DNA of 64,000 nt from a virus: positions 20,373-84,372 of IMG/VR virus record IMGVR_UViG_3300032116_000104; one strand, given 5' to 3'. Position 1 is the first letter of the stretch; each line of letters opens with the position of its first letter. A model generated the notes under the pieces. It was not told the DNA's origin and made no database searches. It saw only the letters and a list, made by a program, of their open reading frames with translations. Both the position numbers and the translations under genes were made by a program. Shown piece by piece: positions 1,250 through 58,836 of the stretch.

Positions 1250-2895
1250 TTCTTCTTGTCCTTCTCTTTGAGGAACTTCTTGACAGCGTCTGGCAGTGCG
1301 GCATCTACTTCCTCAATTGCCTTTTGAGACACAATGCGGTCACCAGACTCCAGAAGTTTGGTAGTCATGTCCTGAAAGGAATAAGGGTCAAAGATGTCAA
1401 CGCCTTCTGAGTTGACAAATCTAATTTCAGAAATGTTGAGCGGACTCAACTCAACCTTCACTTTGTCTGCCGCTTTCTGCTGGAGATAGATGGTGACTGC
1501 TGGGAGATTAAGCCCGCCCCCGATTGGGCCGCCGCCCTGCATGAATAGAACAGCATCCTCGTCGCTCAATTTCATCTTCTTTAGTTTCAATGCTATGACA
1601 TCTTTGCCAACAACTGGGTCGCGAGGGGGAACCTCTACCGAATTTATGTCCAGCATTGACAGTGGGTAGTGGATGACCTCAACCTCGCTCTTGTTGATTC
1701 CACCGAGAATGTAGGCCTTGAATCCAGGACTATTGGCATGTCCAATGAGTTGCGAATAATCGCCAGTAATGGCTGCCTCAATGTAAATCTCCAGAAGTTC
1801 AAGGTTCCTGGCTTCGCTATTACGGGAGTTGATGTTCCCCAGAACAGCAAGGGCAATGTTCTCAGAATCCTCTGACATGGTTGAAACGGAGTAGGCGTTA
1901 TCAAATATGCCAGTGTTTCTTGAGTATCCCGTGCGTCCAAAAACCTCTGGTTTGAGCAGGATGTGAATCTTGTCGTTCATTGAGAAGAACTCGGACTTGT
2001 AGTTCTTCTTCTTGTTATTGGGCTCGGCGGACTTGAATCCAGAGTGGTGCATCCACCCAGAGATGGGGCGAGCCTCGTCTCCCGTCTTTCTGCTGATTCC
2101 CAAAGTTAGGTCAGCATCTCTCTGGATGTCCGCTTGTGAGCCAGACGACCTATCTCTTACTATTTTCTTTCTCTCGGCTAGAAGAAATAGTGTCTCCACA
2201 GACGCATCAACAGAGACAAATCTCTCAAACCCAGCATGCAATCTGAAAGCCAATTTCTCTAGAATCTCTATAATCTCTTCGTTGGTCTTTTTTTCCACCG
2301 CTTTCTTCAGGTATTTAGATACCTCAACATCGTTTTCCCTGACAGATACGGACGGCATTCGGATATCGTCTAGAATCTTCATTACAGTGTCGGTGAAGTC
2401 GTCGTAAGCGTCGTCAATATCCGTCGCATAGTTGGTGCCGTACATCTCATCCAACTTTGAGATGTCATTCATCATGGACTTAGATGCACTGAAGTGGTCA
2501 AATGGCTTGCCGCCAGCAGCCTTAATCTCCCTGATAACAGACTCATTGCGGCGAGAAATTTCTAGGGCATTGCTTGACTTCTTGGTTGACTTGCCGCGAC
2601 GCTGTTTCTCCTCTTGACGCACATCTCTAATGGCATCAATAAGCAAGCCAGCCTCTCTCCGCTCATCGCCAGTCATTGTTGCCGAGGCTTTTTGGGCACG
2701 TCGCTCCATGTCGGACATGACCTTATCCAGGCCGTCTTGCTCAATAACTTCAAGAACCATGGTGCCATCTGGGTCAGGCTGACCCACCCTCAGTTTGGCT
2801 GGAGGTAGGACAACATCCTCTTTCTGACGGTCTTTGTTGGACTTGAATATTCCCTTGGACCCAGCAGGAAGTTTTACACGAACTTTCTTGCTCAT
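1246..2895 (-). CDS. Hypothetical virion protein, degenerate DUF3626/ADP-ribosyltransferase-like domain
   Basis: RPISGWM, ILLKPEVFGRTGYS and FKAYILGGI resemble the RPIYG / LK..V..RTT / EAQIHGG pattern; coupled to the upstream gene. Confidence 0.45.
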   Translation of the reverse strand: MSKKVRVKLPAGSKGIFKSNKDRQKEDVVLPPAKLRVGQPDPDGTMVLEVIEQDGLDKVMSDMERRAQKASATMTGDERREAGLLIDAIRDVRQEEKQRRGKSTKKSSNALEISRRNESVIREIKAAGGKPFDHFSASKSMMNDISKLDEMYGTNYATDIDDAYDDFTDTVMKILDDIRMPSVSVRENDVEVSKYLKKAVEKKTNEEIIEILEKLAFRLHAGFERFVSVDASVETLFLLAERKKIVRDRSSGSQADIQRDADLTLGISRKTGDEARPISGWMHHSGFKSAEPNNKKKNYKSEFFSMNDKIHILLKPEVFGRTGYSRNTGIFDNAYSVSTMSEDSENIALAVLGNINSRNSEARNLELLEIYIEAAITGDYSQLIGHANSPGFKAYILGGINKSEVEVIHYPLSMLDINSVEVPPRDPVVGKDVIALKLKKMKLSDEDAVLFMQGGGPIGGGLNLPAVTIYLQQKAADKVKVELSPLNISEIRFVNSEGVDIFDPYSFQDMTTKLLESGDRIVSQKAIEEVDAALPDAVKKFLKEKDKKK

Positions 2896-5800
2896 TAGAC
2901 AACGCTTTCTTTGCGATTTGGGTCAGGTATTTGACGTGATGAAATCCATCTATCACCTACAGCGAGACGAAGTATTGCATTTTCACTCATTGTTGCCAGT
3001 TCATTAACATACAGGCGCATTTTAACATCCCGAACCCTTAATCTTTCTGTTTCCGCCTGAACGCCAGCATTGGCCATATGATTTGTTACGCCAAGTTCAT
3101 CAGCGATACCGCTAATTCTTTTTTCAGCCGTGGCAACATTCCACCCAAGTCCTGAACTGTCTCCCGATAGTTTTACTTCCCTGGGCATGCCCATTTCTTC
3201 TAGTAAATTGGCAACAATTTCTCCCCTTTTTGATTCCCTAGTTAGGCCAGCCATGGCAAAGGAGCCTTTTGGTATGACCAATCCAGAACCTGGAGCGGCA
3301 GATGCGTATGTATCAACTCCATAAAGATTATCCAAAGCATCTGGATTATGTTTTATAAATTCCCTTAGTGGTATAACTATGGCACGACTTGACTCTGGAG
3401 TTTCCCTCGCTGAATGGCCAGAAACAATATGGTTCAGGGCAAAGTGAACGGTGCCCCTATTGAGCGGAATATAGTAATATCCAGTACTTTCTGTGCCCAT
3501 AGGCATTGTCGCCCCATAATCTCCAGATGGGCGCAAAATCAAATTTCCGTCCTCGTCAACTTCTGGTTCATAGGGAGTTTCATGAACCAGGAATAAGTCG
3601 TCCACCGAAAGTCCAGAGAAGTCGCTATCTCGTGATGGGCGCAAAAGTCTTTCTTTCGTTTCGTCACTTATGTCCATCGCTTCAACTTGTTCAATCCATT
3701 TCTGTCTTTCTTCTTTTTCTTTCCTTATTCCTTCTTCTCTTTGAATTTGCAATTTTTTCCTTGATTCTTCAACCATCTGGCGGCCAATGCGTGCCATTTC
3801 CTTTAATGTTTTTTCGGCTTCTGTATCACCTCTTGATGACGCATAAAGAAGCGCTGCGACAAATGCTGATTCATCAAGACTCCCTTCACTGTTTGCATAT
3901 GTAACTGCATATATAAAGTCAGATGCAGCCTGTTTTCCTTCTTCAGATGATTCTGGAAATCCAGATATAACATAAGGATTCAGGGGCATATCTTTTATTT
4001 CTGGGTTGTTCGCAACAACTTCTGGTCGGGCACCAAACATGACTTTTTCACCAGCAAAATCCCAAACTTCTATTTCCCAAACCGTTCTAAAGCCCTCCAG
4101 ACCCTCGTCCGAAAGTATTGTAGTTTTTTCTCCCTTGAACTCTCCTGGCTGAAGTCGCTTGGGTGTACCAGACCTTAATCCCCTGCCAGTTGAACTGCGT
4201 AATCCCCTGCCGCTAAACGGGTCGCTTGGGTCAAATACCGTAGGCTCCTCATCCATCCCCATTCTTTCCCGAATTCTTCTCATCGTCCTTCTGCCTGCAT
4301 CTGCAGCCCTAGATACACCGTCGTTGGTATCTGGTGGAGGAAATGGATTACCGAACGGGTCGCTGGGGTTTTGTGTTGACTCTTCTCTAGTGAGCCTGCC
4401 TCTCGCCCTTGATGCGGCAGAAGAAACTCCTTGTCTTGCCGAGCGCGCCCTCTCCCTGTTTTTTTCTGTATCAATTCTTGCCCTTGCAAATCGCCCAGCA
4501 TTGACGGCAGCATCCTTGAGTGGGTCGGGAAGTCCTTCTGGGGCAATTCTGTCAAGGCGCGAAGTTATTGCATTGGCTTGTCTTTGACTAAGTTTTCCGT
4601 CTTCAACAAGTTTGCCGACAACATAATCTGCGACATCCCTACCGCCCCTCCGCGCAAGTTCAAGACCTAGTTTCGTAATAGCAGCCTTGGGTCCAAATTT
4701 CATCGCTAAAGCAGTATCAAGAATCATTCCCGCTACTTCTTTTTCACCCTCGTCAAGGCCCATCCTCTCGGCAATAGCGTCAAGCGCCCTACCCTTGAGT
4801 CGCTCCCCAAGTCCACCTTTTCTCTTCTTTCTTTCTCTTCTCGGGCGAGATGTGTCAACTTCTGGAGTGGTCACTTCTGGAAGAGCAAACGGGTCGGCAA
4901 ATGGGTCGCTTGAGTCATAGGTGCCAGGGGTTGTAGCAGGTGTTGTGGCAATTGTTCTTATAGGAGTTGCAAACGGGTCGGCAAATGGGTCTGCAAATGG
5001 GTCACTGCTAGACCTGAGGCCGCGAGATTCACCCCTCATTAGCCCAGTATGTGTAATTTCTGTTCCTGGAGTCATTGAGGCAATATCGCCAATATCTCCG
5101 AGGTCATCTGCATCAATCTCAACAACGGCGTCAAATAGGAGTGGATTCTCCTCCATTGCAGAAAGCATTGGGGCCATATAGTTCTTGACTTGCTCGTCAA
5201 GCAGGGATGAATCAGATGACTTCGGTGTTCCTCTGGAGCCCATCAGTCTTGTGTCGTTGAGCAGTCTTCTTATTTCAGCGCTCTCTCTCAAAGAAGAAGA
5301 AACACTTCTCAGCCCAAGGTCGCTTGACATGTATGGGGCGTTTCCAGATAGTGCGTCTTCAACAGAGCGAGCCTGCTCCCTTGACATATTGCGCTGTGTA
5401 GTTACTGCTTGTATTCTAGAACTGCTTCTGGAGCCCATACGCATGGGGACTTCATCCATTTCCTCCCTATCAAAATTTGATAGGTCAAATCCGTATTCGG
5501 GTATCACCTCAATGCCATGCTCTTTTACAGCCTGCAAGTCAGCAAGGTCATCTATTGATGACATAAAGCGCTTGAGGGCCAGAGCCTGATTGCGCTTTCT
5601 TCTCTGGAAGGTTCCCTCATCTGGCCTTTTTTCATTGCCAGATGCACGCATGGCTTCATCTGCGGCATTCTTAACAGCGGCCTTTAGTTGCATTAACTGG
5701 TCTTCATCAAGTTCCCTAAGGTCGGTCGTCCCAAAGTTCTCTTGTGAATACTCGCGGACAAAACTTAAATTCGTGGTTGGACCATATCTCCCATCATCCC

Positions 5801-8732
5801 CGCCATTAACACGGGCATTGATGTCATCAATCTCTTGTTGTATTTGTGATTTTGTAATGTTGTCCCTGGATGACGGGTCTTTTGTACTGCGCGCCTTCTT
5901 CAGGCGTTCCCAAATTCTGCTTCTTCTTTCTTTCCTTACCGTATTATTGAACTTCTTGCCGTCTGGACGCTTTGATGGCTCGGGCCCAGCAGGAGCATCA
6001 GCGGGCCGCCTCTCTGGCTGTGGCGATACTGGGCGAGGAGCGCTAGGCACAACATCCAGTTCGTCCACTATGTCTGGGTCATTGACAACAGATTCTGGGG
6101 TGTCTGGTCTTGACGCTGGCTCAACACCAGGCGACTCTCTGCGCCGTCTCTCACGACGCAGTTGAATCATCTTCCTCATATCTGAGGCAATGTCACGGAA
6201 ACTCTTCTCAAGCGTGTCGTCGCCAAAGTCTCTGTACCCATCGGCGCGGGCGTCTAGAGCCCTCGCAAGAATCTCTAATTCGCGGTCGTTGAGTTGCCCG
6301 AGGTTGTCTTTTCCGAACGATTGCTTGATGTAGAAGTCAATAAAGTCTTTGCGCTGCTGATGCACCTTTGAGCGGCTTCTGGCTCTCTTCATAATCTTTG
6401 AATAGAGTTCCTGCATCTCTTCTGGGGTCATTGACTCAAGACCGTCAATCTCCCCCATGCTGAATCCGCCTGGAGCCCAATTATCTCTGCCCCCAGATAG
6501 CGCGGCAGGTACTTGTGGTGTCGGTACTCCTAGTTCTTCGGCAAGGTCTGGAGCGACGCTCGCTGGAGGTGCTGCTGGAGATACGGGGGGTTCATAACTC
6601 TGGGCAACCCTAGGCTTCGGACGCTCCATGAACTCAATGGCATCATCAACCTGCTCGCCAGAAATCACGCCCCTTTTCTTCAGTGCAAATAGTTCTGCAG
6701 TTGTTTCAAGGTAGGCGACAGAACGAGCATCTTGAATTGTAGAGGCAGATTCACCGCCTTGAATTGCTGCCGCAATTTCCATTTGCTCCCTGTAAGACCT
6801 TTTTCCAGCAAGCAGGTCAACTTTTTGAGCAATAAGTTGCTCTATATCGCTTCCAGCGTATTTTGATGTATCAACACCGCCAGTAAGTGCATCCATAACC
6901 ATCTCGCTAATTTCGGCGTTTGTCATGTCATTAGTTATGACTCCAGCGCCTCTTAGGAAGTCCTCAACCTGCTCCATTTGCAAAACGTGACCGAATTCGT
7001 GGTACACAAAGTGAGTACCCCTCTCGGTAAATCCACCTTCTGCTGCTGCCAAGTCAATTGCGAACTTTGAGGAATAGTCTTGGAGAAGTTTTAGTTCGGC
7101 TGCAGCACGAGCAACCGCCATGGCGTTTTCCGCATCAGTGCCCTCTGTTCCTTCCTTTACCTGAAGGAGAAATGTCTCATCTGCCTGAAGTTTTTGAAGA
7201 GATGTTTCATCTACTTTAAGAATCTCAAGAGGATTGTACTCTATTGCATATAGCGTATTTCCTTGACCATCTGTTGTTCTTATTGCTTGCCCTTGGTCTC
7301 CAGCCTGGAAAAATGCAGTCCTGAGAACCATTTTTTGTGTAACTTCTGGATAGTCGTATGACACTTCGGCAAACGCTTCAAGTTGTCCATTGAGTTGGTC
7401 AAACATTCTCGTCGTTTGACGACCAACTAGGTCTTTGTCTGGATAATCCTGACCAGCGAGATGGCTTCGGGCATGCCTGAGCGCATCGGCATCGTTATAA
7501 CCAAGATTGCGTAACGCTGTATGTACGAAGACTGCTTCGTGTGCTCTCAGTTTCTCTTCAATAGAAGAATTTGCGGACAGGTTAATTCCGAGTTCTTGAA
7601 GGATTCTCTGTAGTTCTTGATGTTCAATTCCAAAACTTTTATTTTTGTCAACTTTAATTGACTCCGAAAACGGACTAAGAAGAAAATCGTCAATCCTAAA
7701 ATCTGGATTCATTCTTCCAGAATCAATCATTGCTTGAAACAGGCTTGTTAGTGCCGCTGTTCTATCGCCACTCATATCCACGCCAAGACTGTCGGCAAGA
7801 AGTTGAACTGTTTTCATTCTGCGCTCAATGGCGAGTTTCATACCCTCCTCACGCTGAGCAAGTGCAAGCACTTGTTCTGTGACTTGCGATGTTCTTTGGG
7901 CTGGCGGCACCCTGCCCATGACCTGGCGAGCCCTGTCAATAAAACTGGTTCTTGACCTGAGTCCTCTTGCTTCCGAAACAACCTCAGCGACATTGACGGC
8001 AGCAATGCCTACGCTGGAGAGCGTGGGTCTTCCAGAAAATGCTTGAGATATTTCAGAAATGATGTTGCCTATGTCAGCAACGGAAAGGGTGAAGCAGTTT
8101 GAGCCCTGGGCGTCCGTGAACTGGTTGGCCGCTGGAACTCCAGGAGGGCAACGCAATCTGCCTAACGCATCAACAACCATTCCAGCCCGCACGGCGGCAC
8201 GGTTCACGAGTTTTCCAGCAGGATTGCGCTCGCCTATGCTCCGCCCAAGAGCCTTGACCTCTATTGGAGTCTTGTTTATTTGACCAGTCTTAGGGTTGAT
8301 TTTGTGCTTTGTGATTTCAACTTGCGGACCATTGACCAGTGAATCTCTGGCTTCCATGAAACTGGTTTTCTTAGGGCTGACCCATCCGTAATTCGGCTCG
8401 GTATCAAGACCCTGGGAGGCCATGAATGCCTCCCTATCGGTAACCCAATGCTTGAAGAACTGCCCTGGCTTCCGCTTGGCACTCGGGTCCCAAATTATGC
8501 CAGTGCGTTCCTTGTTGGCATTTTCGCCCTGTGTTCTTTTCTTGCCGTCGGTATTGCCTTTTTTGGGCATGGCGGCAGCAGATACATTGGCGTTTAGGCT
8601 CGCCTGCTTAGAGAGTATTCCGCTGATGGCCTTGAAGGCGACCGCTCTTTCGTTGAAGTCAGGGCGTGTGCTTTCTGCCTCAAACACTCTGGGCGCATAA
8701 TAGCGATATTTGTTAAAACGCGCCCCCGTCAT
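2895..8732 (-). CDS. Giant (1945 aa) putative internal/ejection polyprotein with zincin metallopeptidase domain
   Basis: HEFGH (6987-7001) plus downstream ETTAE; RCPPG.PAANQFTD motif; DPF repeats; five GLRS motifs. Confidence 0.6.
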   Translation of the reverse strand: MTGARFNKYRYYAPRVFEAESTRPDFNERAVAFKAISGILSKQASLNANVSAAAMPKKGNTDGKKRTQGENANKERTGIIWDPSAKRKPGQFFKHWVTDREAFMASQGLDTEPNYGWVSPKKTSFMEARDSLVNGPQVEITKHKINPKTGQINKTPIEVKALGRSIGERNPAGKLVNRAAVRAGMVVDALGRLRCPPGVPAANQFTDAQGSNCFTLSVADIGNIISEISQAFSGRPTLSSVGIAAVNVAEVVSEARGLRSRTSFIDRARQVMGRVPPAQRTSQVTEQVLALAQREEGMKLAIERRMKTVQLLADSLGVDMSGDRTAALTSLFQAMIDSGRMNPDFRIDDFLLSPFSESIKVDKNKSFGIEHQELQRILQELGINLSANSSIEEKLRAHEAVFVHTALRNLGYNDADALRHARSHLAGQDYPDKDLVGRQTTRMFDQLNGQLEAFAEVSYDYPEVTQKMVLRTAFFQAGDQGQAIRTTDGQGNTLYAIEYNPLEILKVDETSLQKLQADETFLLQVKEGTEGTDAENAMAVARAAAELKLLQDYSSKFAIDLAAAEGGFTERGTHFVYHEFGHVLQMEQVEDFLRGAGVITNDMTNAEISEMVMDALTGGVDTSKYAGSDIEQLIAQKVDLLAGKRSYREQMEIAAAIQGGESASTIQDARSVAYLETTAELFALKKRGVISGEQVDDAIEFMERPKPRVAQSYEPPVSPAAPPASVAPDLAEELGVPTPQVPAALSGGRDNWAPGGFSMGEIDGLESMTPEEMQELYSKIMKRARSRSKVHQQRKDFIDFYIKQSFGKDNLGQLNDRELEILARALDARADGYRDFGDDTLEKSFRDIASDMRKMIQLRRERRRRESPGVEPASRPDTPESVVNDPDIVDELDVVPSAPRPVSPQPERRPADAPAGPEPSKRPDGKKFNNTVRKERRSRIWERLKKARSTKDPSSRDNITKSQIQQEIDDINARVNGGDDGRYGPTTNLSFVREYSQENFGTTDLRELDEDQLMQLKAAVKNAADEAMRASGNEKRPDEGTFQRRKRNQALALKRFMSSIDDLADLQAVKEHGIEVIPEYGFDLSNFDREEMDEVPMRMGSRSSSRIQAVTTQRNMSREQARSVEDALSGNAPYMSSDLGLRSVSSSLRESAEIRRLLNDTRLMGSRGTPKSSDSSLLDEQVKNYMAPMLSAMEENPLLFDAVVEIDADDLGDIGDIASMTPGTEITHTGLMRGESRGLRSSSDPFADPFADPFATPIRTIATTPATTPGTYDSSDPFADPFALPEVTTPEVDTSRPRRERKKRKGGLGERLKGRALDAIAERMGLDEGEKEVAGMILDTALAMKFGPKAAITKLGLELARRGGRDVADYVVGKLVEDGKLSQRQANAITSRLDRIAPEGLPDPLKDAAVNAGRFARARIDTEKNRERARSARQGVSSAASRARGRLTREESTQNPSDPFGNPFPPPDTNDGVSRAADAGRRTMRRIRERMGMDEEPTVFDPSDPFSGRGLRSSTGRGLRSGTPKRLQPGEFKGEKTTILSDEGLEGFRTVWEIEVWDFAGEKVMFGARPEVVANNPEIKDMPLNPYVISGFPESSEEGKQAASDFIYAVTYANSEGSLDESAFVAALLYASSRGDTEAEKTLKEMARIGRQMVEESRKKLQIQREEGIRKEKEERQKWIEQVEAMDISDETKERLLRPSRDSDFSGLSVDDLFLVHETPYEPEVDEDGNLILRPSGDYGATMPMGTESTGYYYIPLNRGTVHFALNHIVSGHSARETPESSRAIVIPLREFIKHNPDALDNLYGVDTYASAAPGSGLVIPKGSFAMAGLTRESKRGEIVANLLEEMGMPREVKLSGDSSGLGWNVATAEKRISGIADELGVTNHMANAGVQAETERLRVRDVKMRLYVNELATMSENAILRLAVGDRWISSRQIPDPNRKESVV

Positions 8733-8749
8733 AGGGATTCACTTTCTTT

Positions 8750-10258
8750 TCAGGAAAGGTCTGACCCGTTGCCCTCAATTTCCGAGTTGAGAAGTTCAAA
8801 CTCAACAAGGGATGAGATGAACGAATCTGAACCATCGCCAGACTTCTCTTCCATCATCTTGGCTCCGCCAGTCAGCCAGTTCACTGGAATCATGCTCTCC
8901 TTGCCAAGTTCCTTGGCACGCTTCATGATGTGACGCTTTGCGGCCTCTTTGTCCTTGGCGCGACCATAGGCCTGAATGGCGTTCTGGAGGTCAGACTCAT
9001 TGGCAATCGGGAACGAACCATCAGGAAGGGCATTGCCCTCCTTGGCCATGGCGGTGCGCTGGTCCTCAGTAAAGGCGCGCTTGAGTGCAATCTCGGCAGC
9101 CTCGGCCTCAATCGCCTCGGCCTCCTCTGGCTCGTACTTGTCGTAACCGAGCACCTCACCATCAAGGGCAACAAAGACATCGTATGACTTGCCGTCAATG
9201 CCGTTAATCTCAACGGCATAGGCGTCAAAGCCCTCAAAGATGTCTGGCTCAACAGAAATAGCCTCGCCCTCAATGGACTTGACGGCAATCTCTACTGCCT
9301 CAGACATATCAATAACTAACATTGAATCAAGCGCTGACTTCTGCTCAAAAGAGTTCTCGTCAAGTTTCTTCCAGCCAAGCACCTCGGAGGTGGTGCCATC
9401 AATGAACATTTCTACAGCCCGACCATCTTTTGCCTCAACATCAACGACGAACATGTCGGCGTCAGATGAGTACCCAGAGTCAAGTACCTTGCCATCAAAC
9501 ATGGTTTCGGCAATACCCTCGGCGTGCAAAAGACCTGGCATTCCAGCCTCAGGCACGCATCCGCCTGGGCAGTCAGCGCAAACAGCGGCACCACCTGGGT
9601 ACACCTTGCGCTCAATGGAGCAAAGATAAGCGTTTCTTCCGACCTCGGCGGCCTTGACACCAAGGGACTGGAGGCGGCGCTTGCGCATCTTCTCCATATC
9701 GCCTGGGATACCCATGCCGTAGCCCTTCATGGACTCCTCGTCGTCTTCTTCCTCGTCGTCCTCCTCCTCCATGTCCATGTCCTCGTCGTCCATGTCCATT
9801 TCGGGCTTGGCCATTGCGCCCTTCATCTTCTTTTTGCGCTTGGGCATCATGTAATCGCCATCCATGCCCCAGCCCTTCTCGTCGGACTCATCCTCCATGT
9901 CCTCGTCCTCCATCTCCTCCTCGTCGGGAGCCATCATGGAGGCTTTCATCTTCTTCTTCTTGCGCTTGGGCATCATGTAGTCCTCGCCCATGCCCCAGCC
10001 CTTTTCATCGGACTCGTCTTCCATATCCTCTTCGTCGTCTTCCATGTCCATCTCGGCCATGGAAGCGGCCTTCTCGTAGAGGTCATCAAAGTCCTCATTA
10101 ATTGGAACCATCTTCATCTGAACGGGCACGGCGCCACACTTGGCGCACACCTTCGCACCAGGGACGAAACCGCACTCAGCAGCATCGGCACCCTTGGCGC
10201 ACTTAAGAACATTGCCATCGGCATCAATGCTGACTTCGGCCTTCTCGTCATATCCCAT
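8750..10258 (-). CDS. Acidic head protein with two PepSY-like domains and a C-terminal DUF6582-like domain
   Basis: Two repeats of [EA..IA....G.V......F/Y.V.V...DG....V.ID/VA....EVLG]; ALPDGSFPIAN..DL.NAI; Cys clusters; duplicated DMEDESDEKGWGM segment. Confidence 0.6.
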   Translation of the reverse strand: MGYDEKAEVSIDADGNVLKCAKGADAAECGFVPGAKVCAKCGAVPVQMKMVPINEDFDDLYEKAASMAEMDMEDDEEDMEDESDEKGWGMGEDYMMPKRKKKKMKASMMAPDEEEMEDEDMEDESDEKGWGMDGDYMMPKRKKKMKGAMAKPEMDMDDEDMDMEEEDDEEEDDEESMKGYGMGIPGDMEKMRKRRLQSLGVKAAEVGRNAYLCSIERKVYPGGAAVCADCPGGCVPEAGMPGLLHAEGIAETMFDGKVLDSGYSSDADMFVVDVEAKDGRAVEMFIDGTTSEVLGWKKLDENSFEQKSALDSMLVIDMSEAVEIAVKSIEGEAISVEPDIFEGFDAYAVEINGIDGKSYDVFVALDGEVLGYDKYEPEEAEAIEAEAAEIALKRAFTEDQRTAMAKEGNALPDGSFPIANESDLQNAIQAYGRAKDKEAAKRHIMKRAKELGKESMIPVNWLTGGAKMMEEKSGDGSDSFISSLVEFELLNSEIEGNGSDLS

Positions 10259-10353
10259 TGGTCGGCTCCTTAATGTAAACCGTCGTAGAGTTTATCTGTA
10301 CTGTGTAAAAGTATACCCTACACACACGTCGTGTAGGAAGGTATTACTGCGTA

Positions 10354-13300
10354 TTAGAGGTCTTGAATCTCAACTTCTCTTCCGCGCTGATTGCGTCGGT
10401 TGACCGTTCTGGAACTCAACTCCTCAACCGTTCTGTCAATGAATGTAGCCATGGCTGCTTTAGCGAGCATGTCAAGCATGGTTGCAAACTTCTGCTGACG
10501 CTCGTTGCCTCCGATGGCACCTTGACGGTCAATGACCACCATCATGGCGTCAAGGATTTCATCAACTTCATCTCTGGTCATCAGGATGCGCCCAGCGTTG
10601 GTTCTTCTGCTGCCCAACTTGGCTGCCTCTTGACGACTGATGAGGTCTTGAAGCGCCTTGAGGGCGTCTGATGTTCTCTTGTCCTGAGCCTTGTCTGCCT
10701 CACGGATTTCCTTCGGCAGTGAGTCAAGAATATCTTTGAAGAAAGTGGCTTCTGCCTTGATTTCCGTGCGGCCCTGCTTGGAGTCGGTTGACGACCTCAG
10801 GCCTCTCGTGTTCCGCGAGCGGGCGGCCACATAATCCCTAACTTCCTGGGACACCACCCTGTTGGCATTGACTGGGACACTTGAGCGGAGACCCTCACCC
10901 ATGCGTCGGGTAATGACTTCTCCTGCTGCTGGCTCCGCGTCTGGAGTTGGGACATTGTCGTCAATGTCCAGTGGGCGGCCCTCAACTCTCCTGACAACAC
11001 CGCCAGTATCGTCAAACGCATCGTCTGAAATGTCGGCAATGTCGGCAGCAGCGCGACCCCTTCTCGGTGCAACCTCTATCTCTGGTCCATCCTTAATGAA
11101 CTTGTCATTCTTGTAATAAGTGTCCAGTCCGTTAAGGGTTCTCAAGAGTGTTTCTGCTCGCTGAATAATCTTCTCTGCTGGACCATCGGTATCGTCGGCT
11201 TCCTCGGCGTCAGCGAGGTAGTTCTTAACTCTCTGGATGGCAGCCTTGATTTGGTTCCTGCTCAGGTCTTCGCTGTCCATAATGTCAGCGATTTCATCCC
11301 AGGCCTCAGCATGGAGTTCATCAATTCTGCCCCTGTCTGAAAGTCTTGAAGCGTCGTTGACGGTCTTGTCAAGGAAGTTGTTGATTCTTCTTGAGTCGTC
11401 TCTACGCTCCGTGGTTGCGTCTTCGTCATTTGCAGGACGAGGCTTGACGGCAACTTCTTTTGGCCCCTGTTGTGGCTGGCGTTGTGTCGGCTGCACTGGG
11501 CCCCTCTCGGCACGACGAGCCCCACGCTCTGCCCTTCTTTCGTCAGAAGCCTCTCTATCAAGCACTTCCTTCATAACGCGCTCATAGTCAACTTTGCGCA
11601 TTCCACTTCTCTCTGGAGAGTGGTCTGCCATCCAGTTGAACTGTTGTTCTGCCGTCATGCCATCCCAGTTATCTGGCTTCATGCTCTGGAATGTCTTGCC
11701 CTTGCTGTCTTCCTTGGCCCTAGAGCCCATCGGGCGTCCTTTGCTGCCACTGCGACCAGTATCACCGAGTCCTGTTACGCGGATTCCACCTCCGCCAGTA
11801 TCGTCATCGCTGGTTGATGAACGCATGCCACGACCACTTGACTTCTTGGGATTGGCATCGCCAGTAATATTGCTGTACAGGGTATCAAGGGCCTTCCAGT
11901 CCTTCGCAAGAAGCGTTCCGTCCCCACGCCTGTTGTACTCCTCTCGGATTCTCATTGAGACGCCGAGGCTTCCACCCCTTGCGCTGTTCATGAAGAACAC
12001 GAGTTTCTTCTGGCGGGCCTCATCAATGTCCGCAGGAGCGCCATTGTTATTATTTGAACGAAGGCCTAGGTTGCCGCGCTTGCCAGCCTGCTGGTCTTCC
12101 CAGTTGAGGCTCACATACTTTCCGCCCTCTGATTCGGCGGCCTGGTCAATTACGCCCTGAATGTCGGAGGTAACAACTGTTCTGCCGTCTCGGCGTGGCT
12201 CTTTTGCCGACTCAATGGCGTCTTCAATCTGCTCAACCTCGTCTGGGGTGAGGTCAACTTTGCCATTCCTTGCGTTTTTAAGTTTCTCGTCAAGAGCATC
12301 AAGCGCTGCACCATTGGCAGAAAAACGCTTGAGCATTGGAATCTCGTCGCGAAGTTGTGCAATCTCATCGTCGCTGAGCGTCATTGATAGATTGTTTGCA
12401 ACTCTTCTTGTTGAAGAACGCATTCCCTCATCTGAATCGGTCCGTGACTGTTGTGCCGCCTCGCGACGACGCATTGCACGCAGTTCCGCCTTGCGAACAT
12501 CTTCACGACGCATTCCGAGAGACTCGGCCACTTCCTGGAGTGATTCACCTGCCTCGCGGCGTCTCAGAATTCGGTTTTCCGTTTTTTCTCTTTTTGCCCT
12601 TTCAAGACCTTCCTTGACGGTGGGTCTTGGTTTCCTGGCGGCGCGCGCAGTTGTGACCGCCCTGTCTTTCCCAGTCCAGTCCTTGAAAATCCTTGCCCTG
12701 GTCGCAAAATCACCTATTCCTTTATCGTCCCATGCATCAAAAACTCTTTCAGTTATTCCATCACCCCATGGGCCCATCATTTCCCTAACAGACGGGTTCT
12801 GCACTGGGAAGTCATCATCTATGCCCAGAGCGCTGGCAATTTGCTCGGCAACGATTTCCCCAAAACCGTTCAATACATCAACGAATGCCGATTCTTCTCC
12901 TTCGTCCCCAAATAGTCCATCAGACATGAGCCTGACCGCATCCTCTGCGAGAGAATCCATGCGAGAACGCATATTTTCTCTGGTAAATGGGGTGTTGGCA
13001 GCCGCATCAAAGAGTTCTTCAGTCCTGCTCCGAGACGACTCATCCAGGTCACGAATCATTGACCTTCCTGACTCCCTTTTACGCACATCAGACACTCTGT
13101 CTTTTCTGTCACGAGTTGACGACATCAGACCTCTAATGCGTGCCTTTTGCTTATCGTTTGGATTTGGACGAATGGGCAATTTTTCAATATTGCGCTCCAT
13201 GCGGTCACGCCAGTCATCCAGAAGTTCAATTATCTCATCTTTGCTGAAAGAGTCCCAGTTTCGCAGCCACTCTCCCGTTGGGTCATCTGGGTCAGGGAGA

Positions 13301-16300
13301 TACTCATTATCTGGGATGTTCGCTGCCTTGACTCTTTCCTCAAGAAGGTCACGAGCAAGGTAGGCAATATCAGTGACAGCCGTTCTATCTCCGCCACCTC
13401 CAGTGTTTCTGACACCATTTGCGGCTATGTCAATTATTGACTGACGGATACGATTTAGTTCATCGCCAATGTTTTCTGGAGTTATGTCAGTGAGAACTAT
13501 TGATTCAAAAAGTTCCATCGCTCTGTCTGCTGTGGCGGCATCCCATCCACCGCCCTGCTGCCCAGGCTGCATGAACCCCCTGATGTCACGCAACTCTTTT
13601 GACGCATCAAGTCTTGCCTGACGCGCCTGTTGTGCTGCCGCAGATGCGCGCCCTGCCTCTACGTCCCTCATATTGACGACTTCTACATCGCCAGTGCTGG
13701 AACGGACTCCTGTAGTTGGAAATTTGTTATTTAACCCATTGGTCAGGGTATTGATTTCGTCTTCTGAGAATCCAAGTTCTCTGAGTTTGCCAACAATGTC
13801 TGACTCAATTTTCTGACGCGCCTCGCGAGACTCCGTTGGGTCAATCTTGCCCTTTTCATCACGCTTGACCATTCCAGAGCCGCGCTTACCGAGGTTCTCG
13901 GTCGTGGAGCGCATTCCACTACGGCGACGCGCTGGGTTCAGGTTCTCAAGTTCTTCTTTAGAAACACCTTCAACAATGACCCTTCTTGCGGTCTTGGCGA
14001 CTTCAAGTTGTCTGGCGAGCCTGGCTTCGTCTGGGCTTGGCTTGGCTCTCTCCATGTTCATATCGTCAACAGCAAGTTTGAGAACTCTATTCATGTCCTC
14101 AAAGTTGGTAGTCCCATTCTTCATGTCACGAATGAGGCCATCAACCCAATCCTTGTCAAGGCCGCCCCTTGCCGAGTAGGCGGTTGGATAGTCTTCTAGT
14201 GACTCTTCAATATCTCTCAGAAACTCTGAAATTCTTCTGCCGCGACGGTCGGTAATTGACAGCGGTGAGTCCATTGAAGAACTCCTGAGACCACGAGCAC
14301 GATTCATGCGTGGGTCTCCTCTGGTCTCTGCAATCTCCCATGCACGGAGGTCTTCCGCTCTGACGCCAAGGATTCCAGCAAGTTCACGAACTGGCGTTCC
14401 TTCAAAGCGCTTACGCAAGATGAATTCAGCAAGAGCCCTATCGGTGTCCTGGAATCGCGGCTCCTGACCTGGCTCCCCTCGTTGCGCAAGTTGTGCTGGT
14501 GTTCGTGCTGGGATGAGGTCTTTCGCCCTCTTCTTAATTTCCTGAATTTCTAGTTTCCGCACTTCTTCGCGCGACATACCATACTCTTCAGCAACATCAT
14601 CAAGTACTTTGCCAGCAAGACGAGCATCAACAATCGCCCTGTCTCTGTCAATCTCAACCTGCATATCGTCCAGCAGCGCATCAACATCGTCTCTATCGGT
14701 TGAGGAACGAAGGCCTCTTCTTGAGCCACCCGCATCTATGGAATCAGCAAGTTGCTGAATATCCTCAAACGGACCACCACGGTCTCTTCCGTATGCAGAG
14801 AGAGTGGCTATTAAAGCCAGTCTTGCGTTGTTCTTATCGTCCTCGCTAAGAGGAGACTTTGGCCTTCTTCTGCTCGGAAAGAATTTTGTAAAATCATCTC
14901 TGTCGCCGTCAGACAGTTTTATATATTGGTCTTTAAGTGTTGAAATAAGGTCGCTTAGTTCTTCTGCGCCAGGAAATTCGTCTGGAATGTCGCCTTGCAT
15001 TACTGATGCAACTGTCCAGTCTGAACCAGGCTGCGGGGGAAAGTAATCGCCCTGTTCGCTAGGCATAAACCGCGAAAGAACCTCCCCGAGGTTTTCAAGG
15101 AGAATTTCATCTACATCATCCATTGATGTATCACCGTCATTGCCAAGACTTGCGTCAAGCGCCTCTATTGCTCGCTGAAGTGCTTTTGTCTGCTCATCTA
15201 TGGTCATTTCCGCAAAGCGGTCTCCCATTGCGTCAATAATTTCTCTTTGCTCTACGCTATTGGCCTTTGCCGTTCTTGAGCGAAGCCCATCAGGGCGACC
15301 CTTGGAGTCTCCAGCACTTTGCATGCTACGCACCATGTTACGAAGCGCATCAGAGTTTTGCTTATCCGTACTACGAACTCGCTTGTTATTTACTGAGTCA
15401 AGAACTGTGCCGAGGGCAAGAAGAGACGCAATTTGGTCGTCTTCTGACACTGCTCTCTTCCCTCTGGTTTTATACATGTCACCAAAGCGACCCTTGCCGC
15501 CAAGTTTTTCATAGGCATCCTGGACTTCACTCAGAAGGTCACTGACGCTCTCTTTGTCAACGCTCTCTGAACCATCAAGAATTTTGGATGCTGAGTAATC
15601 ACCCGATGGCGCTTCCACGGATAGAAAATCACTCATTAGTTCAGACAGGTATTCTCTGTAGAAATCAATTTCATCGTCACCAGTGGCATCAAACAATTCC
15701 AACTGGTCTTTAACGATATTTCTAAAAGCCTCTTTTCTTTCAGATGGAGACATTTTTGCCATTGATTCAATTGCTGTTCCAGAACGCAGTCCACCATCAC
15801 GACGGTTCTTGGCCTCAAGTTCGGCTTGTCGCACATCCTCGCGACGCATGTTGAGCGACTGAGCAACATCCTGTAGTGACTCCCCAGCCTCGCGGCGCTT
15901 GAGAATCTCATCGTTTGTCTTGCGCTTTGCATCGCGCTGGCGGATTGCCCGAAGTTCAGCCTTTCGCACGTCTTCGCGGCGCATGCCAAGGGACTCGGCT
16001 ACGTCCTGCAAGGACTCTCCAGCCTCACGGCGCTTCAAGATGGAGGCGTCGTCGTTGCTGTCTTTTCCACCAGATGAACGGAGACCACGACCAGTGTTGA
16101 TGCCCTGCCCCTGGGCGGCCTGAATTGCCGCCTGAGTATTTACGCGACCACGCGTTGACCTGTCGTTGACGCCTGGAATCGCAGGTCTTTGGAACGGTGT
16201 CCCTTCTTGAACGATGCCATCGCCGTCACCGTCCCAAGCGTTGGGGTCAAATCTAGCGGTTAGGCCTCTTGCGAGGCGGCGTCCTTTTCCCCCTCCGCCA

Positions 16301-17643
16301 CCACCAATCGCTCGCCCGATGCGATTGCCAAGCCCCTTCTTTAGAGTTTCAACTGCATCAATGAACTCGGGAGTGACACCAGAGGTAATCACGATTCCCT
16401 TTTCAGAGACATATGAATCTACGCGGTGGTAATCCATGATTGGGTCAAGGAGTTGCTTCGTGTGGAAAGCATTATTGATGTCAACTGGGATGACATACTC
16501 TGCTGACTTCACTTCAACTTCCTTCTCTGCCGAAGCAAGGACATCTTGGAGCATTTCCATGACATTCTTCAGTTTTGCAAGGTTGCGCTTGTTGAGCGAG
16601 CGGCCAATCTTCTCCTCAATGTCATCAAGGAAGAAGTCGTCAAAGTCCAAGTCGTCGGACTTTCCTGGCATTGGCATGAAGTCGTCTGGGTCATCCCCAA
16701 GATAGGCGTCCCCCTGCGGCTTCATTGACACAGCAAAAGCCTGTGCTGGAGATGACGGTATGGCGGGAATCTCTGGCGTGTAGACAGTCTGACTCTGGAC
16801 GCGCTCAGGCTTGCCAAACATGAATTGACCATCCTGGAAGTGGAATGCCACTCTGTATGTTGACGACTCACCGTCGCTTGTCAGTCTGTCAAAAACAACA
16901 GTGTTCTCTGTTGCGGCCCTCACGATGACGTTGGAGCCAGACCGCTTGACAAGTTCCCTTCTGAGGGCAACCATCAGCGGGTTCTCTGGGGCAGATGGAC
17001 GAACTGGGCGAACGGCCTGCTGTGGCTTCGGCGCCATTGGCTTCATCATTCCAGACGGCATTCCAGGGCTGTGCGGCATGCCTGGCATGCCCATCATTCC
17101 GTGACCCTTCTCCTCATCCGCCAGAGTAGTATCTGACTTAACCGAAATCGTGCCAGTCAGTTGGTTGGCTCCATGAAGAACTGGGGAAACCTCGTAAAGT
17201 TCCACCTCTCTGAGGATGTTGGCCTGAAGATTAGGGTCAAAAGACGCCTGAATGGTCTTGTAGCCAATTGACCACTCCTGCTCCTCACCAAAGAAGGCAA
17301 CATTGGCGAAAGCCTCACGGCCCTTCTCTGAATTGAGGTTGAACTGAACGCGAGCGTAAAGACCGCCGATTCCAGCAGCCTTCATCTTTCCTGGCAGTCT
17401 TGAGTCGGTTGGGGGAACTTCGTAAATCTCCAAAACCTTGCCGATGGGGTCATTCCAGTTGTGTCCCCAGACGACTCTTGGCTTGCGTCGCTTCAGACTT
17501 GAGTTAAAAGCACCTGGGAGAAGAACATCACCGACGCTGTCCTTGTTTCCGACGCCAGCAACGAAGCACTCAACGATGCCCTGAGCCTGGTCAACATTGA
17601 ATGTTCCAGAACTCGCTTTGAACTCAATATCAGAAAAAGACAT
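10354..17643 (-). CDS. HK97-family prohead protease fused to about 2250 aa of multi-module extension
   Basis: N-terminal DSVGDVLLPGAF, VVWGHNW..PIGK, WSIGY, LYEVSPVLHGAN motifs; lies directly after the portal. Confidence 0.9.
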   Translation of the reverse strand: MSFSDIEFKASSGTFNVDQAQGIVECFVAGVGNKDSVGDVLLPGAFNSSLKRRKPRVVWGHNWNDPIGKVLEIYEVPPTDSRLPGKMKAAGIGGLYARVQFNLNSEKGREAFANVAFFGEEQEWSIGYKTIQASFDPNLQANILREVELYEVSPVLHGANQLTGTISVKSDTTLADEEKGHGMMGMPGMPHSPGMPSGMMKPMAPKPQQAVRPVRPSAPENPLMVALRRELVKRSGSNVIVRAATENTVVFDRLTSDGESSTYRVAFHFQDGQFMFGKPERVQSQTVYTPEIPAIPSSPAQAFAVSMKPQGDAYLGDDPDDFMPMPGKSDDLDFDDFFLDDIEEKIGRSLNKRNLAKLKNVMEMLQDVLASAEKEVEVKSAEYVIPVDINNAFHTKQLLDPIMDYHRVDSYVSEKGIVITSGVTPEFIDAVETLKKGLGNRIGRAIGGGGGGKGRRLARGLTARFDPNAWDGDGDGIVQEGTPFQRPAIPGVNDRSTRGRVNTQAAIQAAQGQGINTGRGLRSSGGKDSNDDASILKRREAGESLQDVAESLGMRREDVRKAELRAIRQRDAKRKTNDEILKRREAGESLQDVAQSLNMRREDVRQAELEAKNRRDGGLRSGTAIESMAKMSPSERKEAFRNIVKDQLELFDATGDDEIDFYREYLSELMSDFLSVEAPSGDYSASKILDGSESVDKESVSDLLSEVQDAYEKLGGKGRFGDMYKTRGKRAVSEDDQIASLLALGTVLDSVNNKRVRSTDKQNSDALRNMVRSMQSAGDSKGRPDGLRSRTAKANSVEQREIIDAMGDRFAEMTIDEQTKALQRAIEALDASLGNDGDTSMDDVDEILLENLGEVLSRFMPSEQGDYFPPQPGSDWTVASVMQGDIPDEFPGAEELSDLISTLKDQYIKLSDGDRDDFTKFFPSRRRPKSPLSEDDKNNARLALIATLSAYGRDRGGPFEDIQQLADSIDAGGSRRGLRSSTDRDDVDALLDDMQVEIDRDRAIVDARLAGKVLDDVAEEYGMSREEVRKLEIQEIKKRAKDLIPARTPAQLAQRGEPGQEPRFQDTDRALAEFILRKRFEGTPVRELAGILGVRAEDLRAWEIAETRGDPRMNRARGLRSSSMDSPLSITDRRGRRISEFLRDIEESLEDYPTAYSARGGLDKDWVDGLIRDMKNGTTNFEDMNRVLKLAVDDMNMERAKPSPDEARLARQLEVAKTARRVIVEGVSKEELENLNPARRRSGMRSTTENLGKRGSGMVKRDEKGKIDPTESREARQKIESDIVGKLRELGFSEDEINTLTNGLNNKFPTTGVRSSTGDVEVVNMRDVEAGRASAAAQQARQARLDASKELRDIRGFMQPGQQGGGWDAATADRAMELFESIVLTDITPENIGDELNRIRQSIIDIAANGVRNTGGGGDRTAVTDIAYLARDLLEERVKAANIPDNEYLPDPDDPTGEWLRNWDSFSKDEIIELLDDWRDRMERNIEKLPIRPNPNDKQKARIRGLMSSTRDRKDRVSDVRKRESGRSMIRDLDESSRSRTEELFDAAANTPFTRENMRSRMDSLAEDAVRLMSDGLFGDEGEESAFVDVLNGFGEIVAEQIASALGIDDDFPVQNPSVREMMGPWGDGITERVFDAWDDKGIGDFATRARIFKDWTGKDRAVTTARAARKPRPTVKEGLERAKREKTENRILRRREAGESLQEVAESLGMRREDVRKAELRAMRRREAAQQSRTDSDEGMRSSTRRVANNLSMTLSDDEIAQLRDEIPMLKRFSANGAALDALDEKLKNARNGKVDLTPDEVEQIEDAIESAKEPRRDGRTVVTSDIQGVIDQAAESEGGKYVSLNWEDQQAGKRGNLGLRSNNNNGAPADIDEARQKKLVFFMNSARGGSLGVSMRIREEYNRRGDGTLLAKDWKALDTLYSNITGDANPKKSSGRGMRSSTSDDDTGGGGIRVTGLGDTGRSGSKGRPMGSRAKEDSKGKTFQSMKPDNWDGMTAEQQFNWMADHSPERSGMRKVDYERVMKEVLDREASDERRAERGARRAERGPVQPTQRQPQQGPKEVAVKPRPANDEDATTERRDDSRRINNFLDKTVNDASRLSDRGRIDELHAEAWDEIADIMDSEDLSRNQIKAAIQRVKNYLADAEEADDTDGPAEKIIQRAETLLRTLNGLDTYYKNDKFIKDGPEIEVAPRRGRAAADIADISDDAFDDTGGVVRRVEGRPLDIDDNVPTPDAEPAAGEVITRRMGEGLRSSVPVNANRVVSQEVRDYVAARSRNTRGLRSSTDSKQGRTEIKAEATFFKDILDSLPKEIREADKAQDKRTSDALKALQDLISRQEAAKLGSRRTNAGRILMTRDEVDEILDAMMVVIDRQGAIGGNERQQKFATMLDMLAKAAMATFIDRTVEELSSRTVNRRNQRGREVEIQDL

Positions 17644-58503: not shown

Positions 58504-58836
58504 ATGTCAGATAAAGATACCCAGAAGAAAGTTCCCCAACCAGATAAATCTATTGATATACCAGATTCAAACTGGTTTGACTATGCAGCATGCAAGGGAC
58601 TGACCCAACTCATGTTCCCCAAGGAACACAAGGATATTACCTACATCGCACAGGCAAGAGCCATCTGTAGGGAGTGCCCAGTAAAGCCTCAGTGCCTGGA
58701 GTATGCCCTGGAGTTCCCACCTGCTGACATGCATGGGGTATGGGCTGGACTGACTAGCAGACAGTTGGCTGCGGAGCAAAGACGCAGGGGAGTAAAGCCG
58801 ATTAGACCGACGCTCAGCCAAATGTGGGGGGACTAG
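58504..58836 (+). CDS. whiB: WhiB-family Fe-S transcription factor
   Basis: W...AAC, A.AIC..CPV...CLEYAL, GVWAG. Confidence 0.93.
   Translation: MSDKDTQKKVPQPDKSIDIPDSNWFDYAACKGLTQLMFPKEHKDITYIAQARAICRECPVKPQCLEYALEFPPADMHGVWAGLTSRQLAAEQRRRGVKPIRPTLSQMWGD

Follow-up and report, generated by a model that had tools for sequence, protein, structure and literature searches.

What is the role of a short peptide motif that recurs 13 times in a single phage protein? The question is raised by a 64,000-nucleotide (nt) stretch of DNA (hereafter, the window), comprising bases 20373-84372 of one 84,372-bp IMG/VR record (IMGVR_UViG_3300032116_000104) from an uncultured freshwater phage. Its minus strand encodes two giant proteins, a 2429-amino acid (aa) fusion that begins with a prohead protease domain and a second protein of 1945 aa, both punctuated by copies of G-[LM]-R-S-S. 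An earlier note on this DNA had listed 13 copies in the fusion and five copies plus a GSRSS in the 1945-aa protein. All of them are present (Table 1); 12 of the 18 coordinates given were the exact low end of the 15-nt site, and six were off by 3 nt, their corrected low ends being 15778, 15274, 12052, 7950, 5301 and 4167.

A reiterated motif in virion proteins

Strict copies of the motif (G[LM]RS) number 11 in the 2429-aa fusion, against a mean of 0.143 in shuffled sequences, and five in the 1945-aa protein, against a mean of 0.107. Neither count was reached in any of 5000 shuffles, and the same holds for the 13 copies found in the fusion with the looser pattern of the earlier note (shuffle mean 0.125; 0/5000). 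GLRS is the commonest 4-mer of both giant proteins. The other 83 open reading frames (ORFs) of the record (19,342 aa) hold no strict copy, with 0.60 expected, and one loose copy, with 0.57 expected, in agreement with the earlier observation that the motif was not noticed in non-virion proteins. The notion that it is limited to the two giants had to be given up, since it has five carriers: the 2429-aa fusion, the 1945-aa protein, a 1331-aa tape measure protein (two strict copies with 0.05 expected, a count reached by 8 of 5000 shuffles) and two proteins encoded outside the window, of 1195 aa (genome 15005-18592; two copies) and 596 aa (genome 12848-14638, minus strand, just before the capsid gene; one copy).

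As claimed before, the copies use different codons: the fusion's 13 copies are 13 different 12-nt strings, so conservation is at the peptide level, and their flanks differ too. A logo of 25 sites shows G in 24, L in 18 or M in five, R in 24 and S in all 25, with S in 14 and T in 17 at the two positions that follow. An R directly precedes the motif in 10 of the 25 sites, and R or K is enriched further upstream, giving [R]-G-[LM]-R-S-[S]-[T] as the extended form in this phage. Taken together, these sequence comparisons indicate that the motif is a genuine signal, selected at the level of the peptide and confined to virion proteins. A literature search, in which the motif letters themselves were not searched for, found no consensus for an S78 protease and no description of the motif.

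The fusion opens with a domain that is, judging from its profile matches, an HK97-type (S78) prohead protease with predicted activity. It matches PF04586 over residues 19-166 (45.2 bits; cut-off 21) and phrog_80 (E 4.5e-29), as well as TIGR01543 with 49.2 bits, under the equivalog cut-off of 59. H61 (VWGHNW) and S125 (EWSIGY), which we take to be the catalytic residues of the HK97-family protease, are invariant across 23 protease domains. Residues 181-519 and the C-terminal module, which may be a scaffold or capsid-binding end, gave no credible match in Pfam, PHROGs or NCBIfam. Between these conserved ends, most cargo modules match no family in the same three databases, or with Foldseek on the modelled part. 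Recognised domains are few, namely a sigma-70 region-4-like helix-turn-helix (HTH), the zincin-like region of the 1945-aa protein and a Zeta-toxin-like kinase in the 596-aa protein. The fusion holds at least four of the HTH modules, with copies at residues 1075 and 1692 in addition to the two in Table 1.

Three head-cassette proteins that are otherwise unrelated have a tag of about 60 aa ahead of their first motif copy. In the fusion the tag and first site stand at residues 471 and 520; in the 1195-aa protein the tag is at 248 and sites are at 309, 335 and 348; in the 596-aa protein the positions are 247 and 329. The fusion's tag is 75% identical over 59 aa to that of the 1195-aa protein and 67.5% identical over 40 aa to that of the 596-aa protein. 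It is conserved across lineages, has a weak match to phrog_7924 and may be a capsid-targeting or docking element. All three proteins thus share one architecture, of tag, site and then cargo. In the 596-aa protein, the P-loop kinase domain of the Zeta-toxin type (PF06414; 50.1 bits, cut-off 22.3) occupies residues 372-509, downstream of the motif copy at residue 329, and a DUF3721 match lies at residues 23-51, upstream of the tag. These domain matches make the 596-aa protein a candidate packaged enzyme.

The motif copies were also placed on predicted structures. An AlphaFold2 model of fusion residues 1730-2429 (22-row alignment; mean predicted local distance difference test score, pLDDT, 72.5) consists of helical domains parted by low-confidence coil. 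All five motif copies in it (model residues 11, 131, 210, 522 and 552) lie in coil between helical domains, which bears out the earlier claim that the motif occupies linkers at module borders. Four of them fall in segments with pLDDT below 50, which make up 183 of the 700 residues (chance of at least four of five, about 0.02), and the fifth in a 22-residue coil with pLDDT of about 63. In a second model, covering residues 200-1399 of the 1945-aa protein, all four sites lie in low-confidence stretches, but this says little because the model is weak (mean pLDDT 51.8, with 643 of 1200 residues below 50). Foldseek searches of the PDB returned nothing at E <= 0.001 for either model and so named none of the cargo folds. 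The proposed tie between the motif and two diverged helical repeats was also recovered: residues 618-785 and 786-976 align with a local score of 108, compared to 35.9 +/- 6.8 for shuffles (z 10.5), and each repeat starts at a motif copy.

Lineage-specific versions of the motif

A scan of IMG/VR with the protease domain gave 548 confirmed relatives among 553 candidate stretches, of which the best 80 were kept. The fusion ORFs of the relatives range from about 1000 to over 3500 aa, and almost every one has as its most frequent 4-mer a variant of the motif: GFAS, GFSS, GMAS(R), GLAS, GLSS(G), [RK]LSSG, RFSSG or GLRS. Among the fusions of at least 1000 aa from the kept loci, made non-redundant by a 60-aa key (n=34), the fusion bodies hold 233 occurrences of the generic pattern [GRK][LFM][RAS]S, with 31.3 expected, and in 23 of the 34 fusions the observed count was reached by none of 300 shuffles. 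Two of the 34 have no generic copy and carry SSRS or SLRS instead. The core that the lineage versions share is hydrophobic-x-Ser.

The ends of the fusion are conserved in the relatives (55-61% identity over the first 519 residues and 45-58% over the last 149), and its middle is mostly lineage-specific. The site before the C-terminal module is orthologous in 21 aligned sequences, where its letters vary by lineage (GLRSS, GLRSA, GLRST, RGMSSR, RGFAST, MGFSSS, VGLAST, GLASS and GLSSS). Homology blocks shared with relatives (51 blocks, from related subjects and hence not independent) start at a mean distance of 17 aa from a site, compared with 71 aa when the sites are random (0/2000). A stronger form of this result, in which blocks would never cross sites, was rejected, as 37 of the 51 blocks cross, the same as for random sites; the crossing reflects conservation of the last ~700 aa as one collinear block in relatives, and for this reason not all modules are the free cassettes that had been envisaged. 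In one relative, modules 5 and 6 occur in reversed order.

The protease domain is N-terminal in all relatives examined, and across lineages it is 78-84% identical to that of the window, with over 100 invariant columns. In one relative (L036:1357-4367, L037:239-3249), a 454-aa protease ORF overlaps a following 575-aa ORF in a different frame, where other lineages have a single fusion; this could be a frameshift, either programmed or due to assembly error.

Five of the relatives were extended by 20 kb, and the six resulting genomes, including this phage, share one gene order. In these genomes three further proteins, namely the second giant, the 1195-like protein and the pre-capsid protein, bear the variant typical of the lineage; this variant is found in the capsid protein of none of the six, nor does the portal protein carry it. 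The genome of the GMAS lineage, for instance, has RGMASR at residue 1132 of the second giant, at residue 324 of the 1195-like protein and at residues 313 and 586 of the pre-capsid protein, and GFAS stands at the equivalent positions of the GFAS genome; across genomes, several of the sites can be aligned. In a complete 148-kb relative, [LFM]SSG occurs 15 times in the 3963-aa fusion (0.22 expected), nine times in the 3490-aa second giant (0.22 expected) and twice in the 1703-aa tape measure (0.14 expected), against two occurrences in all other ORFs (36,057 aa; 2.5 expected).

The tape measure has an N-terminal site cluster in five of seven genomes and a mid-protein cluster, in a stretch of low conservation, in all seven. 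The letters of these sites largely follow the lineage, with three GLAS copies in the GLAS genome and KLSSG and RFSSG in the [RK][LF]SSG genome. Separately, six of seven tape measures share R-N-[WY]-G-L-G-S some 110 aa before the C terminus, where conservation is high; this peptide might have a structural role or might be one more HK97-like site.

The second giant diverges fast, its orthologues (18 sequences) being 16-26% identical to the window protein. The HExxHxxQ and downstream Glu of its zincin-like region are invariant in the 18 sequences and aligned in the six genomes, and a match was found in four of five more distant records searched. The region has no Pfam match; a VIA-align comparison with the catalytic domain of 1yqy_A gave Z 8.5 and a root-mean-square deviation (rmsd) of 4.7 over 184 aligned residues, which is borderline for helical models.

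Candidate readers of the motif

The earlier note had taken the motif for a cleavage or sorting signal. Cleavage fits best because of the reiteration in one chain, the positional conservation combined with lineage drift, and the likeness to the site cut by the HK97 protease, whereas a sorting signal would not need to repeat 13 times per chain. Cleavage by a phage-encoded virion protease is the robust part of this interpretation, and we consider it likely. Our favoured reading, to which we assign a probability of roughly 0.4, is that the motif copies are proteolytic processing sites read by the fused HK97-type S78 protease, which we place somewhat ahead of the zincin-like metallopeptidase. The HK97 S78 protease is reported to cut gp5 at K103/S104-L-G-S, in the context FNK/SLGSD, the slash marking the cut (PMC10275583), and this site closely resembles a putative [RK]/G-L-x-S (R/GLRSS). 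K-G-L-G-S closes the N-terminal coiled-coil region of this phage's capsid protein, and the capsid proteins of relatives have K-S-L-G-S in two cases and K-Q-L-S-S in the LSSG-lineage genome. K-x-L-x-S is present at the end of the N-terminal helical region in four of seven capsid proteins, and follows the lineage variant in the LSSG genome only.

We infer from these comparisons that the sites would be cut, by the S78 enzyme and within the head, and that the pieces would be ejected into the host. About 1760 aa of putative cargo modules lie between the N-terminal part of the fusion (1-519) and its C-terminal module (2281-2429), and the conserved chain ends probably carry the fusion into the procapsid. 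There, the fused protease would cut at the linkers, yielding about 14 pieces from the 2429-aa fusion and 6-7 from the 1945-aa protein, and would also free the cargo halves of the two other tag-bearing head proteins, one of them the Zeta-toxin-like kinase.

Several observations weigh against assigning the sites to the S78 protease. The tape measure has lineage-matched copies at its two conserved places (mid-protein in 7/7 and N-terminal in 5/7), and the tails of contractile-tailed phages assemble apart from heads, so a protease confined to the prohead should not see them. The S78 domain is nearly invariant between lineages, yet the motif shifts between R, A and S and between L, F and M, and no protease column tracks motif class cleanly (E/Q121 is lineage-linked, with exceptions). 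The HK97 analogy rests on a single site; in three of seven capsid proteins the candidate site lacks the Ser, in six of seven it does not follow the lineage variant, and in the [RK]LSSG lineages the basic residue stands one place nearer the Leu than in HK97. A complex prediction of the S78 domain with fusion residues 2262-2301, run without controls, gave scores of 0.15 and 0.25 against a mark of 0.32 and favours neither side.

Alternatively, the sites would be cleaved by the zincin-like metallopeptidase of the 1945-aa protein, cutting just before the hydrophobic residue, a reading that we regard as possible though rather unlikely. Such an enzyme could be active in the cytoplasm or the head, or once ejected, and therefore could reach the tape measure too. 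The protein that holds it diverges fast, like the motif, while the S78 domain hardly changes; the tape measure is a carrier, and the capsid protein is without the lineage variant. The invariant hydrophobic residue, with basic residues upstream, fits the usual preference of thermolysin-type zincins for a hydrophobic P1'. The catalytic residues of the region are invariant in the 18 orthologues, its match recurs in four of five distant records, its fold matches a zincin catalytic domain with the values given above, and a role for such peptidases in the processing of polyvalent proteins was proposed by Iyer et al. 2017 (PMC5512222). Against these points, it is the S78 fusion, rather than the zincin protein, in which the motif is densest; the family has no zincin specificity on record; a Z of 8.5 is within the chance range for helical models, Foldseek returned nothing, and the motif resembles the HK97 site. 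The closest cultured phage, DalanDe of Gordonia, has two HExxH proteins and an S78 fusion with no reiterated motif, so that the presence of the enzymes does not predict the motif; nor does presence or absence decide the reader, because both enzymes occur in every lineage examined.

Readings without a phage enzyme fare less well. The motif could serve for docking or modification, or could be a linker that was copied along as modules duplicated, with the chains staying whole. Two neighbouring modules are indeed diverged duplicates that each begin with the motif, from which it follows that some copies spread by duplication, and 37 of 51 homology blocks run across sites. The copies differ, however, in codons and flanks; Ser and the hydrophobic residue are invariant, whereas true spacers drift; and the letters at orthologous single sites, in four further proteins as well as in the tape measure, vary together with the lineage, so duplication alone is insufficient. 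We consider chains that stay whole improbable. Still less probable, in our view, is cutting by a host protease after ejection, with variants that follow different hosts. All carriers, as head cargo or tape measure, are expected to exit via the tail, the variants do differ between lineages, and in Staphylococcus phage 80alpha head proteins are cut by a host protease. However, two conserved phage proteases are encoded within the carrier proteins, and close lineages from the same kind of habitat differ in their variant. A wider interpretation, which we hold as doubtful, would see in the motif a "private" and drifting cleavage code common to head cargo and tape measure, with a protease that travels with its substrates and a chain of 2000-3900 aa, loaded into the capsid by one targeting end, that becomes a dozen or more small effectors. 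Cutting would take place in the head or only after ejection, drift of the code would protect against interference by co-infecting relatives or host inhibitors, and the use of polyproteins known from RNA viruses would have been reinvented by a large clade of double-stranded DNA phages of Actinobacteria.

If cutting does occur, each virion of this clade would package and deliver dozens of small proteins encoded by two or three genes. The clade comprises at least 548 IMG/VR contigs, with genomes of about 150 kb, from lakes, and its host is probably actinobacterial. Module boundaries could then be predicted from sequence by means of the motif, and hundreds of cargo modules, such as the HTH modules, the Zeta-like kinase and the zincin, could be excised for individual testing. 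If true, processing by a phage protease would also provide a natural series of co-varying protease and site pairs in which to study the evolution of specificity, and an example of a head-type code for processing that also covers a tail protein.

Known systems, gene order and host

The locus had been put forward as a candidate novel system. We regard it instead as a variant of the processing of cargo by prohead proteases (T4 gp21, phiKZ/SPN3US) and of polyvalent proteins. The cutting of a short consensus in internal head proteins by the prohead protease of T4 is textbook knowledge, and T4 gp21 and phiKZ-type proteases belong to MEROPS families other than S78. As for T4 gp21 and phiKZ/SPN3US gp175/gp245, a short consensus is repeated here in head proteins, and the removal of N-terminal targeting parts from cargo thought to be ejected would be a further likeness. 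In those systems the proteases are stand-alone, the motifs end in Glu, and the substrates are separate head proteins, each with an N-terminal propeptide; in SPN3US, 14 sites in nine substrates are reported as mapped (PMC10052503). Here, in contrast, an S78 protease is fused N-terminally to cargo, a chain has up to 15 sites at module borders, a separate tag stands before the first site, the motif drifts between close lineages, and the carriers are not confined to the head, as the tape measure bears the motif.

The polyvalent proteins of Iyer et al. 2017 are described as giant multi-module proteins delivered with DNA, for which processing by zincins was proposed (PMC5512222). A zincin with HExxH and a downstream Glu, invariant in 18 sequences, is likewise found here. 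Some polyvalent proteins have an assemblin-like peptidase, said to be "always" C-terminal, and the parts of that paper which describe them name no cleavage motif (PMC5512222); in this phage the peptidase stands at the N terminus (residues 4-179 of 2429), and the linkers display a repeated code.

Compared to HK97 gp4/gp5, the family is the same (PF04586) and the capsid protein also has an N-terminal helical scaffold-like domain, but gp4 has 225 aa (678-nt gene) and no cargo, and no repeated consensus is described for it. In lambda C/Nu3, P2 gpO and Mu I/Z, an N-terminal protease and a C-terminal capsid-binding end lie in one frame, with self-cleavage between them. These have no cargo, whereas 1760 aa are inserted here and up to about 3300 aa in relatives.

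The nearest deposited phages infect Gordonia, Brevibacterium and Streptomyces, with about 40% identity in protease and terminase; those of Gordonia are contractile-tailed. The closest deposited genomes are those of the Gordonia GMA6/DalanDe group (Bendigovirus; 83-93 kb, contractile), with this level of identity (about 40%) in protease and terminase; a long series of large genes likewise lies between portal and capsid, including one for a 1633-aa "capsid maturation protease". Its protease domain is, however, in the C-terminal third, and no reiterated 4-mer was found in that protein or its neighbours. No deposited phage matched the fusion beyond its first ~180 residues, the protease domain, and we know of no cultured member of the clade.

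The head genes form a long minus-strand operon, in the order portal, 2429-aa, 502-aa, 1945-aa and 549-aa ORFs, which continues outside the window with ORFs of 681, 1195, 129 and 596 aa and then the major capsid protein (442 aa; PF05065, E 5.5e-45; phrog_10, E 9e-66). The protease ORF thus directly follows the portal, with the capsid gene ~18 kb downstream on the same strand and the cargo genes between. The plus strand carries the terminase and tail genes, including the tape measure.

Table 1. Positions of the motif copies and other features, in window coordinates except where genome coordinates are indicated
Feature	Position	Strand	Remark
2429-aa fusion (P0001): S78 protease, conserved domain, tag, 13 motif-bounded segments, conserved C-terminal module	10354-17643	-	
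HK97-family prohead serine protease domain, residues 4-179	17107-17634	-	PF04586, phrog_80
Shared tag FDPNAWDGDGDG..PFQRPAIPGVNDRST, residues 452-513	16105-16290	-	Just upstream of first motif copy; identity to 1195-aa and 596-aa proteins
GLRSS, fusion residue 520	16072-16086	-	
GLRSG, fusion residue 618	15778-15792	-	
GLRSR, fusion residue 786	15274-15288	-	
GLRSS, fusion residue 977	14701-14715	-	
GLRSS, fusion residue 1118	14278-14292	-	
GMRST, fusion residue 1243	13903-13917	-	
GVRSS, fusion residue 1312	13696-13710	-	
GLMSS, fusion residue 1505	13117-13131	-	
GMRSS, fusion residue 1740	12412-12426	-	Segment with pLDDT<50
GLRSN, fusion residue 1860	12052-12066	-	Coil, pLDDT about 63
GMRSS, fusion residue 1939	11815-11829	-	Segment with pLDDT<50
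GLRSS, fusion residue 2251	10879-10893	-	Segment with pLDDT<50
GLRSS, fusion residue 2281	10789-10803	-	Orthologous site preceding conserved C-terminal module
Conserved C-terminal 149-aa helical module, residues 2281-2429	10357-10803	-	45-58% identity among the top hits listed for 23 relatives
Two diverged helical repeats, residues 618-785 and 786-976	14716-15792	-	Motif at each start; local alignment
Two sigma-70 region-4-like HTH modules, residues 535-617	15793-16041	-	PF04545, E 6.2e-10
1945-aa second giant protein (P0002)	2895-8732	-	
GLRSR, 1945-aa residue 257	7950-7964	-	Orthologous site in 5/6 genomes
GSRSS, 1945-aa residue 1100	5421-5435	-	Weak copy
GLRSV, 1945-aa residue 1140	5301-5315	-	
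GLRSS, 1945-aa residue 1238	5007-5021	-	
GLRSS-TGR-GLRSG, 1945-aa residues 1510 and 1518	4167-4205	-	
Zincin-like metallopeptidase region	6615-7769	-	HExxHxxQ and downstream Glu
HEFGH, 1945-aa residues 578-582	6987-7001	-	
ETTAE, 1945-aa residues 676-680	6693-6707	-	
Tape measure protein, 1331 aa	33256-37251	+	Motif carrier; phrog_4070
GMRSS (GMRSST), tape measure residue 41	33376-33390	+	
GVRSG-GLRSS (GVRSGGLRSST), tape measure residues 570-579	34963-34992	+	
R-N-[WY]-G-L-G-S, tape measure residue ~1220	~36913-36930	+	
Portal protein, first gene of head cassette	17734-19830	-	PF04860, E 1e-49
502-aa protein between the two giants	8750-10258	-	Conserved in 6/6 genomes (461-509 aa)
WhiB-family gene	58573-58764	+	PF02467, 55.5 bits
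Asp/Asn beta-hydroxylase domain protein, directly after major capsid gene	genome 10746-11378, outside window	-	PF05118, E 1.3e-15

The 502-aa protein has no motif copy, and PHROGs, Pfam and NCBIfam gave no credible match to it or to the final 428 aa of the 1945-aa protein; a PepSY assignment for the 502-aa protein was dropped (18.9 bits, cut-off 24). Two further patterns were seen in the 1945-aa protein. Between residues ~1240 and 1510 (window ~4200-5010, minus strand), S-D-P-F occurs four times and D-P-F-A five times, as in SDPFADPFADPFAT and in PSDPFSGR directly before a GLRSS, and AlphaFold2 predicts a coil of ~95 residues at the S-D-P-F stretch. A two-Cys motif, R-C-P-P-G-x-P-A-A-N-x-F-T...G..C-F, at residues ~193-215 (window 8088-8156, minus strand) is invariant or nearly so in the 18 orthologues and has no family match.

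CheckV puts the completeness of the 84-kb record at 56%. The real genome size is probably about 150 kb, judging from the complete relative, which measures 148,355 bp and ends in direct terminal repeats. A search of the window for tRNA genes gave none. The host is probably actinobacterial, a placement to which the WhiB-family gene and the affinities with Gordonia phages point. No matching RNA sequencing runs were listed for the record. Near-identical DNA occurs in lake and freshwater metagenomes from several studies; with possible sources set aside, the DNA runs that share at least half of the words are four, from four studies, and comprise lake water, freshwater, algae and a plain metagenome.

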